From: Candidatus Omnitrophota bacterium
GTDB lineage: Bacteria > Omnitrophota > Gorgyraeia > Duberdicusellales > 4484-171
Direction: 5' to 3'
Length of the DNA stretch: 64,000 nt
Assembly: GCA_043820815.1 (NCBI GenBank)
Contig: JBDRDJ010000031.1
Span: 36,015-100,014, forward strand
Shown here: in pieces, positions 2,520-59,904 of the stretch
How the letters are laid out: every line of letters begins with the position of its first letter
How positions within the stretch are numbered: the first letter of the stretch is position 1
Position numbers and translations under genes: made by a program
Notes under the pieces: model-generated
Databases searched by the model: none
What the model was told of the DNA's origin: nothing
What the model saw: only the letters and a program-made list of their open reading frames with translations

Positions 2520-3716
2520 TTATCCTCTCAGCTCAACTAACGCCTTTTTGGTTGAATCAATCATATAATCAAAATCACGTTCGCCCATCCACACATGAAA
2601 AGGAAAAGACACCATATTATCGAAGAAATCATCGGTGTTGGGACAATTGGCAACTCCCAAGCCCATTTTTTTAAATAAAGGGTAACGGTAGAGAGGGTAA
2701 TACTGAACAATTGCTTTTATCTTATATTTATATGCCAATAACTCAATAAAATCGTGATTTGTTTTCTTAAATTCTTTGCCGCAATACTTTGCTGATAAAA
2801 GATGATATACATGTTTATAGCCTAAAGGCACTCTCTGAAATGACAATTCATTAAATTCCCCAAGTTCTTTTTTAAACTTCTCAGCCCTTTTTATTCTTAT
2901 TTTGTTAGACTTATCAAGGTTTTTAAGAAGTTTAATGCCCATCGCGCACTGGGGTTCACTTAAACAGAAATTATAAGGCCAGACACTTTCTATATCACAA
3001 TCAACATCAACCATTGCCGGCTGCCAGTAGTTATCCCGTTTATGCGAATATTCCCTTACTCCGTTATGCCTTAAACCGGGAACTTTTTTCGCTAAATCAG
3101 GGGCTTTTACAACTAACATGCCTCCTTCGCCTAAAGTAGTTATGTTTTTCTGGCAATGGAAACTGAAAGCTCCAAAGTCTGCGAAACTTCCTGATTTCTC
3201 ACCTTTCAACTCTGCTCCAATTGCCTGAGCACAATCTTCAACCACCATGCAATTATTTCTTTTAGCAAGGCTCATTATAGATTCCATATCAGCCATTAAA
3301 CCGTAAAGATGAACCGCGACTATCAGCCTGGTTTCTGGGGTAATTAACTTCTCGATTGATTGGCAAGAAACAACGCGGGTATCTCTATCAATATCTGCCC
3401 AAACAATTTTCGCGCCTGTTCTTGCAAAAGGAATGGCTGCGGCGCAAAAAGTATGCGCCGGTATTATTACCTCATCGCCTTTTTTAACCCCTGAAAGTAT
3501 TGCCGCAAGGTCAAGCGCGTTTGTGCAGTTAGAAACAGCAAAACTGTTAGGCGTTGAATTATATTTGGCAAATTCAGCCTCAAACTGTTTTAGATATTTT
3601 CCCTGAGTAAGAGGGTCGGCATTTTTTATTACATCTAAAATAAAATCCAATTCCTCATCCGTGCAGGCAAGTGACCTGCCGCTCCAAGGAATCCTAAAAT
3701 TGTTTCTCTTATTCAC
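2520..3716 (-). CDS. DegT/DnrJ/EryC1-type PLP sugar aminotransferase
   Basis: Family motif FSFHCQKNITTLGEGG with the PLP lysine. I moved the start to GTG 3716, which is preceded by GGGAGGA 8 nt upstream and overlaps the stop of the upstream gene. The track's longer N-terminus overlaps the NeuB-like gene. Confidence 0.85.
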   Translation of the reverse strand: MNKRNNFRIPWSGRSLACTDEELDFILDVIKNADPLTQGKYLKQFEAEFAKYNSTPNSFAVSNCTNALDLAAILSGVKKGDEVIIPAHTFCAAAIPFARTGAKIVWADIDRDTRVVSCQSIEKLITPETRLIVAVHLYGLMADMESIMSLAKRNNCMVVEDCAQAIGAELKGEKSGSFADFGAFSFHCQKNITTLGEGGMLVVKAPDLAKKVPGLRHNGVREYSHKRDNYWQPAMVDVDCDIESVWPYNFCLSEPQCAMGIKLLKNLDKSNKIRIKRAEKFKKELGEFNELSFQRVPLGYKHVYHLLSAKYCGKEFKKTNHDFIELLAYKYKIKAIVQYYPLYRYPLFKKMGLGVANCPNTDDFFDNMVSFPFHVWMGERDFDYMIDSTKKALVELRG

Positions 3717-4587
3717 CTTCAAAATCCTCCCGGAAATAACGCAGCTTGTACATTGCTTCTTCTTCCATTTCGTGAATGGATTTCTCGCCTGTTCCAAGCA
3801 TCTTCTTAACCAGCCGGCAGTCTCTAACCACAAGTTCTAAACCTTTTCTCTCAAGCGAAGAAGACTGGTCAGAGCCGTACATGCTCCTGCTTAAAGTTAT
3901 ATGCCTTTCAATAGCAACCACTCCCTGCACAACAGCAACAGTAGAAGGCAGAATTCCTACTTCGTGGCCGCTGTAGCCGCAGGGGCAACCGTAGCGTTTC
4001 CTTAAAGACTGGGTCATGTTTATATTGCACCATTCATCAGGACAGGGGTAAATCGATATACAGTGCATAAGCGTAAAAGGACAATCTTCTTTCTTAAAAA
4101 CATCAACTACTCTGTCTATCTGCTCAAAACTGCTCATTCCCGTTGATATAAAGGTGTGTTTTTTCTCGCTGGCAACCATCTTTATTAAATTTATGTGAGT
4201 AAGCATGGGAGATGCTATTTTATTAAATGGTAAATTGAACTGGCGCAAGAAAATTTGGCTGTCCTCATCCCAGGCAGAGGCAAACCAGTAGATCTCTTTT
4301 TCTTTACAGTACTTATCGACCTCTGAATATTCGTCTTTGCCGAATTCCAGCCCTTCTTTCTGATCCCGCTGAGTATTACCCCAGGGGCTTTGCCTGGGGG
4401 ATGCGAGAAATTCTTTGCTGTAAACCTTATCCACTGTGCGCTTTTGAAACTTAACCGCGTCACAGCCGCAGTCCTTAGCCATATCAATCAGCTCTTTTGC
4501 TACCTGTAAATCTCCGTTATGGTTAATGCCGAGCTCGGCGATTATAAAGGGAAGCCTGCTTTCATCCTGATATGGGTTAATTGCCAT
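3709..4587 (-). CDS. NeuB-family ulosonic acid synthase, short form without a C-terminal SAF domain
   Basis: 292 aa. IIAELGINHNGDLQVAKELIDMAKDCGCDAVKFQKR is the NeuB TIM-barrel signature. The protein ends without the SAF/antifreeze-like segment that is present in the paralog at 47545-48684. Confidence 0.8.
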   Translation of the reverse strand: MAINPYQDESRLPFIIAELGINHNGDLQVAKELIDMAKDCGCDAVKFQKRTVDKVYSKEFLASPRQSPWGNTQRDQKEGLEFGKDEYSEVDKYCKEKEIYWFASAWDEDSQIFLRQFNLPFNKIASPMLTHINLIKMVASEKKHTFISTGMSSFEQIDRVVDVFKKEDCPFTLMHCISIYPCPDEWCNINMTQSLRKRYGCPCGYSGHEVGILPSTVAVVQGVVAIERHITLSRSMYGSDQSSSLERKGLELVVRDCRLVKKMLGTGEKSIHEMEEEAMYKLRYFREDFEGE

Positions 4588-4597
4588 TGTAAACCTC

Positions 4598-5305
4598 CTA
4601 ATATTTGTTTAATATTCTTCGTTTCATAAAGAATTCGCAGATTTCTACATCTTCTGCCTTATCAATTTCAAATGATTTCCACAAAGGCATAAGATACATC
4701 TCAATTTTTCCCCCAAAACGGTTGTTGTTTTTCCTTAAAATACCGGGTTTAAATATGTAAATTGAGCCGTTTTCCAGATAATAAGGTTTCCTCTCCTGAC
4801 GCCTGCCCCTGTTTTTATAATCGAAAGTTGCGCCTTTAAGCTTCTTGTTTTTAATTTCCCAGGCGCAGAAATCATCTAAAAGGCTTGACGAAAAGAGAGA
4901 GTCGGCTTTTTTGTTTATAAAATAATTAACAGCCTTACCTATATCGCACTCTTCTCTAAGCGGCGACGTAGCCTGGAGAAAAACACATATATCTATTTTC
5001 TTTCTCTTTTGCTTTTCTATGTTTTCTATAGCATGCAAAAGAGCCTGCTCTGAAGATGATTTACCGCCTGACAAAGATTTTGGCCGTTTTATCGATTTTG
5101 CTCCAAATACTTCTGATATATTTATAATTTCTTTGCTGTCTGAGGAAACATAAACATCTTTTATGTATTTGCTGTTTTTAGCCTGCAAAATTGACCATGC
5201 AATGAGAGGCTTACCGCAGAAATCCATTATATTTTTTCCTCGTATTCCTTTAGAGCCGCCTCTTGCCGGTATTACTGCAATTATTTCTTGGCTTTTCTTA
5301 TTCAT
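4598..5305 (-). CDS. neuA: CMP-nonulosonic acid synthetase (acylneuraminate cytidylyltransferase family)
   Basis: 235 aa. IAVIPARGGSKGIRGKNI P-loop-like motif, then LQATSPLR. Confidence 0.85.
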   Translation of the reverse strand: MNKKSQEIIAVIPARGGSKGIRGKNIMDFCGKPLIAWSILQAKNSKYIKDVYVSSDSKEIINISEVFGAKSIKRPKSLSGGKSSSEQALLHAIENIEKQKRKKIDICVFLQATSPLREECDIGKAVNYFINKKADSLFSSSLLDDFCAWEIKNKKLKGATFDYKNRGRRQERKPYYLENGSIYIFKPGILRKNNNRFGGKIEMYLMPLWKSFEIDKAEDVEICEFFMKRRILNKY

Positions 5306-5934
5306 TGCTTCTTAAAACCTTTGGGAAAAACTTTCTCTTTTTTAATCAAAAATACTATGTAATTCCCCAAAGCCGGGCCGAATAAATTAGCAAAACCGTT
5401 TAATGCCTTAAGGAGGCAAAACTCAAGTTTTGTTTTTGCCACCTTATGAATGGCAAAAAAACGCCTTAAGTCATACTTTAAAAATAGAGCTTTGCTCAAT
5501 TTCACAACATCGCGCTTATTAAAACGGTAAACATAGTTTCCGTGCTCGATTTCGTATTCACTTGCCCAGCCTAATTTCTCAAACAATCTCGTAAGCCAAG
5601 TATCATTTGGCTCAATTACTATAAGCCCTTCTTTCGCAACACGCAAAAGCTCATAAACTCCTCTTGCGGGCTCTTTTAAATGGTGAAGGCTGGCGGCAAT
5701 GACCACATAATCAAAAGAATTGTCTTTAAAGGCTAAATGTTGATTGTCAGTTAAAATAAACAATTCATCGGAGAAATTTGATTGGGATTTCTCCATAGCC
5801 TTCGTATTGATGTCGCTAAAACACACCTTCTTAGGATTATAAAACTTCTTTATGTAATGGGCATCGATGCCGCAGCCGCTGCTTGCAACTAGAAGCGTCT
5901 TGTTGCTTAAGCTAAGATTGTTGTCATCTAACAT
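5302..5934 (-). CDS. Class I SAM-dependent methyltransferase; the N-terminus is possibly truncated or frameshifted (see finding)
   Basis: 210 aa with LLVASSGCG (motif I) and DYVVIAASLHHL. The same reading frame stays open for 41 codons upstream, back to the GT4 stop codon. Confidence 0.75.
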   Translation of the reverse strand: MLDDNNLSLSNKTLLVASSGCGIDAHYIKKFYNPKKVCFSDINTKAMEKSQSNFSDELFILTDNQHLAFKDNSFDYVVIAASLHHLKEPARGVYELLRVAKEGLIVIEPNDTWLTRLFEKLGWASEYEIEHGNYVYRFNKRDVVKLSKALFLKYDLRRFFAIHKVAKTKLEFCLLKALNGFANLFGPALGNYIVFLIKKEKVFPKGFKKQ

Positions 5935-6020
5935 TTTTTTAAGCCTTATAAAAGGAACCGCCCGGAAATAATCATGAAAGTAATTATTTTCGTAAATAAA
6001 AGGACTGTCCCAAGAATAGG

Positions 6021-6030
6021 TTTTTTTTTT
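6021..6030 (-). repeat. A10 (T10 on plus) homopolymer tract between the GT4 stop and the methyltransferase ATG
   Basis: Direct reading: 6021-6030 tttttttttt. It is one of only two homopolymer runs of 10 nt or more that I saw in the window; the other is the T11 tract at 59817-59827. Confidence 0.95.
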
Positions 6031-6057
6031 CTTTAGGCTCAGCGATACTTTCTTTAT

Positions 6058-7287
6058 TTATACACATAATTTCTCCTCTCTGGGGACTTGGGTTTTATCT
6101 TTCATTTGCAAAGTGTATTTATTTAAAGTATCCTTATATATCCCTATTAATATTTCATAGTTTTTCTCTTCAGAATACTTTCTTCCATATTCTTTCCTGG
6201 CTTCTTCTCCCATCTGGCGCATTTTATCGGGATTTTTCCATGCCCATTCAATTTTAGAGGCAAGATCTTTTGGATCTTTAACATTAAAAAGCAGGCCCGT
6301 TTTTCCATCTTCAACAAGCTCGCTCATACCGCCGACCCTTGCGGCTATAACGGGAACCGAGCAGGCAAAAGACTCAACCACTGTACGAGGAACTTGCTCA
6401 TAAACCTCGGAGGGAAAAATAAGAAAAAGGGCACTACGTAAACATTCAAACTTTTTCTGATCGGACAATCTTCCTAATACTTCAATATTACCTCTTCCTT
6501 TTGCCCTTTCTTTTAACTTGCTATACATATATCCGTCGCCGATTATTTTAACCTTTGATTCTGAAAAATTTTCATAAGAAGAAAATAAAGTTTCAATACC
6601 TTTATAACCGAACAACCTTCCTATATATAAACCATAGCTTTTATCATTAGCATTGTCTTTTCTCTCTAAACTAACAAAATTTGGGCAAACCGCTATTTTA
6701 TTTTTGGATAAACCAAGATTTATGAATTTATTTCTACTGTAATTGCTTGCAGCAATATATGTCTGAATCTTTTCTTTAAATGTTTTCTTTTTGTGATGAT
6801 ATCTTAACAAACAAACCATGCATAAGGTTTGAAAAAAAGAACCCTTGCCGCAAAAATTAAACACAGCTGGTAAGAAATTACCCCCAAAGCATTCTTCACA
6901 TATTTTATCGTCTCTAAAGAATTTGCCTTTGTTTGGACAAAACATCCTGTGGTTATGCAACGACTGAACAACCGGAATATTGCAATCAGCCAGCGCACTA
7001 TAAACCGAAGGGCTAACCATAAAAAAAATATTATGAATATGGGCAATGTCAGGCTTTTCTTTCTTAACGATATCTTTTATTTCTGAATAGGTCTTTTTAG
7101 ACCAAATCATTTCATTTTTTAGGAGATTAATTCTTTTAAACAATGGAAATTTATCGATCTCTCTGTTTGATCGTTGATATAATATTACCTCGTGTCCGTA
7201 CTTTCTAAGCATTTGAACCTCTGAAGCAACAACAGACTCTTCTCCTCCTTCATATACGTAACAACAATGAATATTTAATATCTTCAT
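6058..7287 (-). CDS. GT4-family (GT-B, retaining) glycosyltransferase
   Basis: 409 aa. C-terminal EVYEQVPRTVVESFACSVPVIAARVGGMSELVEDGKTGLLF matches the GT4 EX7E-region pattern. Confidence 0.85.
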   Translation of the reverse strand: MKILNIHCCYVYEGGEESVVASEVQMLRKYGHEVILYQRSNREIDKFPLFKRINLLKNEMIWSKKTYSEIKDIVKKEKPDIAHIHNIFFMVSPSVYSALADCNIPVVQSLHNHRMFCPNKGKFFRDDKICEECFGGNFLPAVFNFCGKGSFFQTLCMVCLLRYHHKKKTFKEKIQTYIAASNYSRNKFINLGLSKNKIAVCPNFVSLERKDNANDKSYGLYIGRLFGYKGIETLFSSYENFSESKVKIIGDGYMYSKLKERAKGRGNIEVLGRLSDQKKFECLRSALFLIFPSEVYEQVPRTVVESFACSVPVIAARVGGMSELVEDGKTGLLFNVKDPKDLASKIEWAWKNPDKMRQMGEEARKEYGRKYSEEKNYEILIGIYKDTLNKYTLQMKDKTQVPREEKLCV

Positions 7288-59519: not shown

Positions 59520-59614
59520 GATTTTATGAATTATAAAATTTTCTAATGATAATTTAAAAATTAGAAAACCCGCCGCCAAAATTTATACTGGCACAGCCGC
59601 GATGTTTAATGACT

Positions 59615-59648
59615 AAAAAACCCCGCACTGAAAACAGTGCGGGGTTTT
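59615..59648 (-). terminator. Rho-independent terminator, bidirectional in form
   Basis: Plus strand reads aaaaaa CCCCGCACTG aaaa CAGTGCGGGG tttt: a perfect 10-bp GC-rich stem with a 4-nt loop, with a T-run on the minus strand after the small ORF. Confidence 0.9.
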
Positions 59649-59670
59649 AAAATAAAAATCTTATGATGCC

Positions 59671-59727
59671 TTACTTTTTCTTTTTCTTAGCTACTTTTTT
59701 CTTAGCGGCTTTTTTCTTTACTGCCAT
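59671..59727 (-). CDS. 18-codon poly-lysine small ORF (MAVKKKAAKKKVAKKKKK)
   Basis: Own translation. AAGGAGGTGA lies 3 nt upstream of the ATG (GGAGG core spacing 6). A near-consensus promoter lies upstream and a strong terminator ~23 nt downstream. The ORF is too short for the ORF track. Confidence 0.55.
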   Translation of the reverse strand: MAVKKKAAKKKVAKKKKK

Positions 59728-59777
59728 TTGTCACCTCCTTTTAAACTGTAACAACAATAAATATCACCTTATATTTT

Positions 59778-59806
59778 AATTTAACAAATTAAACAAGGTA
59801 TGTCAA
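59778..59806 (-). promoter_or_regulatory. Sigma70-type promoter: TTGACA-N17-TAAATT with a TGT extended -10 and an upstream A-tract (UP-like)
   Basis: Minus strand reads ttgAAAAAAAAAAAcgaaaaagtaTTGACAtaccttgtttaattTGTTAAATTaaaat, ~50 nt upstream of the small ORF. Confidence 0.6.
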
Positions 59807-59904
59807 TACTTTTTCGTTTTTTTTTTTCAAAATTTTTTAGAAACAGCTGAAGGAAAAATCTGGAGAGAAGACTGGCGGTTAGAGAAAAAATAAAAAGTGA
59901 TTGC

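Follow-up and report, generated by a model that had tools for sequence, protein, structure and literature searches.

Among bacterial contingency genes, poly-G tracts are known from the capsule, lipooligosaccharide and flagellar-glycosylation genes of Campylobacter jejuni and from lgt and pgl of Neisseria, and poly-A or poly-C tracts from Helicobacter pylori. A second group comprises the slippage-rescued genes, such as tssM1 of Citrobacter rodentium with its A11 run (PMC4256274), and mxiE of Shigella and dnaX of T. thermophilus, the latter with an A9 run (reviewed in PMC1088944). Poly(A) frameshifts have also been described in the endosymbionts Buchnera and Blochmannia (PMC3017870). The present analysis deals with a comparable locus in a 64,000-nucleotide stretch of DNA from a Candidatus Omnitrophota bacterium (contig JBDRDJ010000031.1; termed the window below), where a run of ten adenines (A10) is located near the 5' end of a methyltransferase (MTase) gene that follows a GT4 glycosyltransferase gene. 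The region 6067-5302 of the minus strand is very probably one MTase gene, whose frame is broken at the tract and whose annotation is truncated.

The features concerned are the following, with all positions counted in the window.

6058-7287, minus strand: GT4 glycosyltransferase gene, 409 aa (NCBI MFH1772657.1), with the stop codon TAA at 6060-6058.
6073-6078, minus strand: Shine-Dalgarno (SD) sequence GAGGAG, with a 5-nt spacer to the ATG at 6067.
6065-6067, minus strand: putative true start codon ATG of the MTase, assigned from its strong SD, its position across the GT4 stop, which recurs in relatives, and the distance from start to conserved motif.
5984-6067, minus strand: product from the ATG at 6067 as sequenced, 27 codons, MCINKESIAEPKEKKNLFLGQSFYLRK, with its stop at 5986-5984.
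6021-6030, minus strand: A10 homopolymer (T10 on the plus strand), flanked by G and C, the frame-break site, in codons 13-16 (E-K-K-T).
5935-6021, minus strand: orphaned N-terminal coding segment, residues 16-44, TYSWDSPFIYENNYFHDYFRAVPFIRLKK, in the MTase frame and upstream of any ATG, GTG or TTG.
5302-5934, minus strand: annotated MTase open reading frame (ORF), 210 aa (NCBI MFH1772656.1), very probably truncated at its N-terminus.
5302-6067, minus strand: whole reconstructed MTase gene, 254 aa if the tract is A9.

An earlier note on this DNA had described the GT4 stop, the 41 codons that follow it, the A10 run, the SD-preceded ATG, its 27-codon frame and a possible extension of 44 residues, and all of these positions and strings were reproduced. 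The GT4 and the annotated MTase ORFs are in the same frame, and the 123 nt between them read as 41 sense codons, IKKVSLSLKKKKTYSWDSPFIYENNYFHDYFRAVPFIRLKK. The attention that the note had drawn to this shared frame was accurate as an observation and irrelevant as a clue. The prior for sharing a frame is one in three; the shared frame is a coincidence and a red herring. Its suggestion that the open stretch exceeds chance is borne out to a modest degree: the probability of 41 open codons is 0.02 from the off-frame stop frequency of the window genes and 0.04 from base composition, and no other of the window's 59 ORFs has so long a lead from a stop to the first start, the second longest being 25 codons. 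The SD at 6067 forms an anti-SD duplex of -9.1 kcal/mol, which ranks fourth among the 59 gene starts of the window and is equalled at 1.7% of random positions; that at 5934 reaches -2.7 kcal/mol, a background value found or bettered at 43% of random sites.

The ATG at 6067 overlaps the end of the GT4 gene by 10 nt, and the 27-codon ORF that it opens is in the correct frame only as far as the A-tract. The MTase frame extends upstream no further than the TAA at 6060, the frame of the SD-preceded ATG runs into a stop at 5986, and conservation in the MTase frame begins at T16 (6021-6019), so that the switch of frame must lie between 6057 and 6021, where the A10 run is the one plausible site. Deletion of one A (A9) yields an ORF of 254 aa (…EPKEKKTYSW…), 44 residues longer than the annotated 210 aa, and A12 yields 255 aa with an extra Lys, while the A10 frame ends after 27 aa, the A8 and A11 frames after 39-40 aa, and the A13 frame likewise within 27-40 aa. 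The tryptic peptide TYSWDSPFIYENNYFHDYFR is translated only with a restored frame; MLDDNNLSLSNK is the N-terminal peptide start of the 210-aa ORF from Met 5934, and AAGAAAAAGA is an interrupted form of the A10 tract.

The decisive evidence for what is very probably a single gene is homology rather than the statistics of the open stretch. A search with the A9-joined protein retrieved 252 homologues (E<=1e-5) of 144-290 aa, nearly all of them 240-260 aa long and covering 90-96% of the query, and the sole 100% match was the window's own truncated product. No homologue starting at the Met-5934 position or devoid of residues 16-44 was found among these ~250 sequences, so that the refuting condition named in the note did not hold, and the 44-residue extension, whose alignment with orthologues the note had proposed as a check, proved to be highly conserved. 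The 29 codons from the tract to Met 5934 belong to the best conserved stretches of the family. The proposal that removal of one A joins the ATG at 6067 to the MTase frame is therefore strongly supported by homology. In an alignment of 36 sequences, conservation starts directly after the A-tract with K-[KT]-Y-S-x-x-N/D-P-F-x-Y-E, and the motif HDYFRxxPF, also upstream of Met-5934, contains the invariant residues F34, P38 and F39 together with D32 and R35, which are conserved in more than 90%. Mean identity of the relatives to the window protein is 11% over the tail (residues 1-15), 54% over the orphaned segment (16-44) and 61% over the annotated part (45-245). The column of Met45, which is encoded by the ATG at 5934, is an internal hydrophobic position occupied by Leu in 24 and Met in 9 of the 36 sequences.

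Profile and structural comparisons lead in the same direction. In the full-length MTase profiles UbiE, BioC and PRK05785, profile position ~50 aligns with residue ~55 of the joined protein; the complete region before motif I, which takes up ~50 residues in these profiles, is absent from the 210-aa ORF, where motif I would begin at about residue 20, and is present only in the A9-joined 254 aa. Motif I (G-x-G-x-D) is represented by G64, G66 and D68, which are invariant or nearly so. The protein matches Pfam Methyltransf_11 (3.9e-12, 47.1 bits against a cutoff of 21.2) and Methyltransf_25 (36.7 bits, cutoff 27), and more than 1200 methyltransferase matches in the Protein Data Bank (PDB) were obtained at E<=1e-3. 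A model built with AlphaFold2 (AF2) on the alignment reached a pLDDT of 90.2 and a pTM of 0.86 and displayed alternating strands and helices, with residues 1-15 disordered, residues 16-28 ordered and a 20-residue helix (29-48) spanning Met45; pLDDT over the orphaned segment is 77-98. As judged from the profile matches and the predicted fold, the reconstructed protein is a class I S-adenosylmethionine (SAM)-dependent methyltransferase. The 210-aa ORF begins four residues short of the end of the modelled helix 29-48, and is probably inactive because the ordered, invariant N-terminal element, namely HDYFRxxPF and most of this helix, is missing from it.

Foldseek and PDB sequence searches returned generic class I methyltransferases only and no specific function. 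The nearest solved structures are the uncharacterised methyltransferases 3mgg, 3l8d and 2p7h and the sugar O-methyltransferases RebM (3bus) and AtmM (6uv6). These share with the window protein the Rossmann-like fold, motif I with G64, G66 and D68, and an acidic loop; identity is only 10-20%, and neither the N-terminal HDYFRxxPF nor the conserved pairing with GT4 is described for them. The MTase family is conserved in Omnitrophota and other uncultivated lineages, where it is paired with GT4.

The loci of the relatives are in accordance with the reconstructed gene. Genome contigs gave 11 loci, five of which were too distant to include the motif, and an additional metagenome scan brought the total of informative loci to 49. 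All 49 loci with HDYFRxxPF possess an in-frame start upstream of the motif, at a median distance of 33 aa (30 aa in the window from ATG 6067 with A9), and a frameshift was detected in none of them (0/49). A-runs at the homologous site are at most A8 and in frame throughout: the Lys-Lys site is A6 in L001 and L006 (GAT AAA AAA GGG), A5 in L004 (ACT AAA AAG ACA) and A8 in L007 (GAA AAA AAA TAT). Since relatives carry these shorter in-frame runs, the AAA-coded Lys pair is ancestral, and the run has been lengthened in the lineage of the window to A9 (GAA AAA AAA ACC), the window itself showing A10. The GT4 gene stands directly upstream of the MTase gene in the relatives as a separate gene, with a stop/start overlap of 4 nt (L001/L002) or 23 nt (L004/L005), an arrangement into which the window's overlap of 10 nt (6067/6058) fits.

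A 208-aa product of one relative (P0037 from L003) was considered as a second frameshift and rejected, because the L003 DNA carries an intact full-length ORF and the short form reflects the start chosen by the gene caller. P0037 (L003:29-781, Logan SRR22388045 contig) is called from the same internal Met despite the intact upstream ATG, which suggests a recurrent start mis-call in this family. Two MTase-family paralogues ~3.4 kb apart, L026 and L032, occur on contig Ga0172375_10000385 (20418-24119 and 16990-20712), so that the family can stand in tandem within glycan clusters. L007 (CAZQEY010000001.1), which has the longest in-frame A-run (A8), is labelled 'uncultured Planctomycetales'; its MTase shares 70% identity with the Omnitrophota protein, and this taxonomic assignment may not be trustworthy.

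As to the origin of the break, two of the four alternatives of the note survive the comparison, namely phase variation or slippage and a homopolymer sequencing error. The explanation that we tentatively favour, with something short of an even balance of belief, is that A10 is a genuine, recent and incidental slipped allele that is reversible and probably leaky. The gene structure is much firmer than this account of the cause: translation of the MTase is very probably coupled to that of GT4 through the SD GAGGAG and the ATG at 6067 overlapping the GT4 stop, one extra A in the poly(A) run, situated in a disordered N-terminal tail (Glu-Lys-Lys-Thr), breaks a frame that A9 or A12 keeps open, and ribosomes starting at 6067 make a 27-residue peptide from the gene as sequenced. 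As to the cause, the A10 would have arisen when an in-frame A9 slipped during replication, the tract having already drifted upward in the lineage, as the A5, A6 and A8 of the relatives suggest. Such an event would be recent, because everything downstream is intact, and reversible, because A9/A10 runs are hypermutable; the allele would probably be leaky, because slippage of RNA polymerase on nine or more A's yields some A9 or A12 transcripts and hence full-length enzyme. Since the A-runs of the relatives do not exceed eight and are all in frame, and since flanking RNA structure is absent, the tract may best be regarded as a chance slip that has made the gene a nascent pseudogene or put it into a de facto OFF state, rather than as an evolved recoding device.

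The treatment of A-runs elsewhere in the window bears on this explanation. In 300 synonymous-codon shuffles of the 59 window ORFs, 16.8+-3.0 sense A-runs of at least 8 nt were expected in coding DNA against 2 observed, and 5.8+-1.9 of at least 9 nt within ORFs against none observed, a value as low as this occurring in 0 of the 300 shuffles. Every KKK is broken up by AAG, and T-runs are much less depleted. The A10 tract is the only sense A-run of at least 9 nt in ~62 kb of coding DNA. According to Baranov et al., under-represented runs, typically from 9 nt, indicate selection against transcriptional and replicative slippage (PMC1088944). It follows from this avoidance that slippage is a real cost in the window organism. 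An A10 mRNA would be expected to give some A9 or A12 transcripts, as in C. rodentium tssM1, whose A11 run gives transcripts with 10-15 A's and a restored frame (PMC4256274).

Ribosome sliding on lysine-encoding poly(A) is robust at A11 and slight at A9 or A10 (Koutmou et al. 2015, PMC4363877), and no flanking RNA structure was detected, the fold of 5960-6095 being no better than that of shuffles (z=0.20); any rescue would therefore take place at the level of DNA or RNA polymerase. Ribosome sliding was accordingly rejected as the main route of rescue, given its weakness at A10 (PMC4363877). A programmed ribosomal frameshift was rejected as well, there being no stimulator (z=0.20) and the shift needed being +1/-2 instead of the -1 typical of A-AAA-AAG sites.

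The quality of the assembly is a further consideration. About 60 homopolymers of 7-8 nt leave their ORFs intact, and the 64 kb contain no second split gene, which indicates that the assembly is not generally prone to indels and favours a genuine A10. Stutter in Illumina reads and homopolymer errors in nanopore reads lean toward deletions, and a change from A9 to A10 would be an insertion, which we also count for a genuine A10.

Several points weigh against it. In none of the collections searched did a second copy of the locus or of either protein turn up, so the consensus may be in error: a search with the exact flanks and a tract of N{7,13} found 0 matches to other copies in 185k species genomes and 241M metagenome records, the contig index contained no record of the exact protein, and the MTase and GT4 proteins form singleton 90% clusters among ~15 billion sequences. 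A10 is the most error-prone site in the window, and the only other run of at least 10 nt, an A11 at 59817-59827 that is the longest homopolymer of the window and lies in its largest intergenic gap, is uninformative in this respect. If the run were really A12 and two bases had been missed, an under-call of the kind typical of nanopore data, the result would be A10 too. A downstream ORF this flawless, with no invariant residue lost, is just what one would expect of an artefact, and the lack of a second lesion in the gene implies that the break is very recent, compensated or not real. The efficiency of transcriptional slippage depends on the organism, and leakiness in Omnitrophota is suggested by analogy; the weak sliding of ribosomes at A9/A10 (PMC4363877) counts in the same direction.

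The strongest of the rival explanations is a sequencing or assembly artefact, which is possible though doubtful. The real tract would be A9, or A12 under-called by two, the MTase would be an intact protein of 254 or 255 aa, and the consensus would be miscounted, after which the annotation pipeline would have taken the first in-frame ATG downstream. The frame break coincides with the longest coding homopolymer of the window, the source is a contig of a metagenome-assembled genome (MAG) sampled once, and 49 of 49 relatives are intact; the MTase is otherwise flawless, its invariant residues being kept and a second lesion being absent, and in a genome that purges A-runs of at least 8 nt, a gene broken at such a run resembles a homopolymer error. 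Against this stand the lack of any other indel-type break in 64 kb, in spite of the ~60 runs of 7-8 nt, and the insertion that a step from A9 to A10 demands, which is the rarer direction of error on both platforms. Moreover, even when corrected to A9 the tract would go unexplained in a genome that avoids long A-runs, which implies that the tract itself, whatever its exact length, is not an artefact.

It is unlikely that the tract is an adaptive switch, that is, a selected contingency locus turning glycan methylation ON and OFF, or a transcriptional-slippage throttle that keeps the MTase at a low level. The architecture is contingency-like, with a homopolymer of at least 9 nt near the 5' end of a surface-glycan modification gene and a disordered tail in which an extra Lys can be accommodated; the persistence of the tract despite genome-wide removal of long A-runs could mean positive selection, and functional slippage on A-runs has precedents (PMC4256274; PMC1088944). 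However, the tract is not conserved, the runs of the 49 relatives being at most A8 and all in frame, and only one such tract is present in the 59 genes of a glycan-rich window, whereas phase-variable organisms usually have many. A stimulatory structure is lacking, and with the switch OFF the following cytidylyltransferase gene (ATGA) would lose its translational coupling too, an awkward design.

That the 210-aa protein from the ATG at 5934, or a product from a non-canonical start (ATA at 6057 or CTG at 6042), is the real enzyme and the upstream stretch a relic is very improbable. The NCBI annotation agrees with it, the gene caller made the same choice for P0037 (L003), and reinitiation 50 nt past the 27-codon ORF is conceivable, yet the SD of this ATG is at background level, the codon lies inside helix 29-48, its column is an internal Leu/Met in relatives, and the product would be deprived of the invariant F34, P38 and F39; the L003 full-length ORF is intact upstream, and the ATA at 6057 is 15 nt from the SD in a frame 0 that is not conserved upstream of the tract.

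The suggestions of the note that a TAA readthrough might give a GT4-MTase fusion, or that the locus might be a decayed ancestral one, so that the shared frame and the 41 open codons would mark a once or still continuous polypeptide, can practically be set aside, because a shared frame has a prior of 1 in 3, none of the 252 homologues is fused or exceeds 290 aa, the GT4 and MTase genes of relatives are separate with stop/start overlaps in different frames, the frame-0 peptide upstream of the tract (IKKVSLSLKKKK) is without counterpart in them, frame 0 being conserved only downstream of the tract, the DNA upstream of it is explained by the other frame with its SD-ATG, and TAA is the most efficient bacterial stop.

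The gene next downstream of the MTase is the following.

4598-5305, minus strand: cytidylyltransferase gene, PseF-like CMP-nonulosonate synthetase, CTP_transf_3 7e-25.

The cytidylyltransferase also matches TIGR03584 PseF at 4e-37, below the cutoff of that profile. Its ATG overlaps the MTase stop (ATGA, 5305-5302), so that its translational coupling needs ribosomes in the MTase frame. The GT4 assignment comes from profile matches to Pfam Glycos_transf_1 (4e-31) and Glyco_transf_4 (6e-14). MFH1772656.1, recorded under the name 'MAG: methyltransferase domain-containing protein [Candidatus Omnitrophota bacterium]', and MFH1772657.1 share one 117,272-bp contig. Besides the cytidylyltransferase, the MTase and GT4, the neighbourhood harbors genes for a B12-radical-SAM enzyme, a DegT aminotransferase, a NeuB-family synthase, two epimerase/dehydratases, a nucleotidyltransferase and a Wzy_C protein, and is a surface-glycan or nonulosonic-acid cluster. 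The window has a G+C content of 37.6% and a coding density of 96.7%.

Some further observations were made in the window. All 59 predicted genes lie on the minus strand, many with 4-nt overlaps of the ATGA type, which makes an unusually long co-oriented block. The NeuB-family synthase (3709-4587, minus strand) has just 292 aa, and its match to the NeuB profile covers positions 1-272 of 329; the C-terminal SAF-like domain, for which there is no space before the next gene, DegT, appears to be missing. The A11 run at 59817-59827 was considered as the site of a second broken gene and rejected, being intergenic and promoter-proximal. In the region 59614-59827 (minus strand), it stands just upstream of a promoter with TTGACA and an AT-rich, -10-like element, which is followed by the strong SD AAGGAGGTG, a 22-codon Lys/Ala-rich ORF, MAVKKKAAKKKVAKKKKK, and a GC hairpin with a T-run as terminator; the region could be the gene of a tiny basic protein with a UP-element-like A-tract.

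The main practical yield of this work is a corrected gene model: the public MFH1772656.1 (210 aa) is very probably a truncated one, better annotated as a 254-aa MTase with a homopolymer frameshift. If the A10 is real, a surface glycan that contains nonulosonic acid would be methylated less or not at all in this cell line, owing to the commonest type of reversible mutation, and termination at 5986 would also uncouple the downstream cytidylyltransferase. To our knowledge, surface-glycan variation is unexplored in Omnitrophota, many of which are small cells possibly under pressure from hosts or phages. Were the tract an adaptive switch after all, phase variation of surface glycans through a homopolymer would be indicated for the first time in this phylum. 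The avoidance of A-runs of at least 8 nt in genes is a useful side result, in that it reveals slippage to be costly in the lineage.

In comparison with contingency loci, the A10 tract is a hypermutable repeat within an ORF whose length sets the frame. Like them, it has a run of at least 9 nt close to the 5' end of a gene whose product modifies glycans; the protein is disordered and tolerant at this point, and a change of one nucleotide in either direction toggles the MTase between full length and a short peptide. Unlike them, the run is poly-A and not poly-G or poly-C, it is single in the window, and it is not conserved in the 49 relatives; such tracts do not recur, the relatives having at most A8 in frame and the 59 window genes no other coding run of at least 9 nt.

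With the slippage-rescued genes, the window shares a sense A-run of at least 9 nt exactly where the frames must join, with no requirement for RNA structure, and like slippage-competent systems its genome avoids long A-runs (PMC1088944). In established cases of slippage, the out-of-frame run is conserved, or a mixed mRNA population and both products have been demonstrated, whereas the relatives of the window are without the run; conservation of run and discontinuity among orthologues, the mark of programmed slippage, is not seen, no orthologue having the discontinuity. As in ribosome sliding, an AAA-AAA Lys run is situated in an ORF and the frame can be lost or regained without a stimulator (PMC4363877), and the contribution of sliding at the A10 of the window would be marginal at most, since it is robust at A11 and slight at A9/A10 (PMC4363877). 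Placed beside these systems, the locus is another instance of a well-known type of event, by which the current understanding of homopolymer slippage is left unchallenged.

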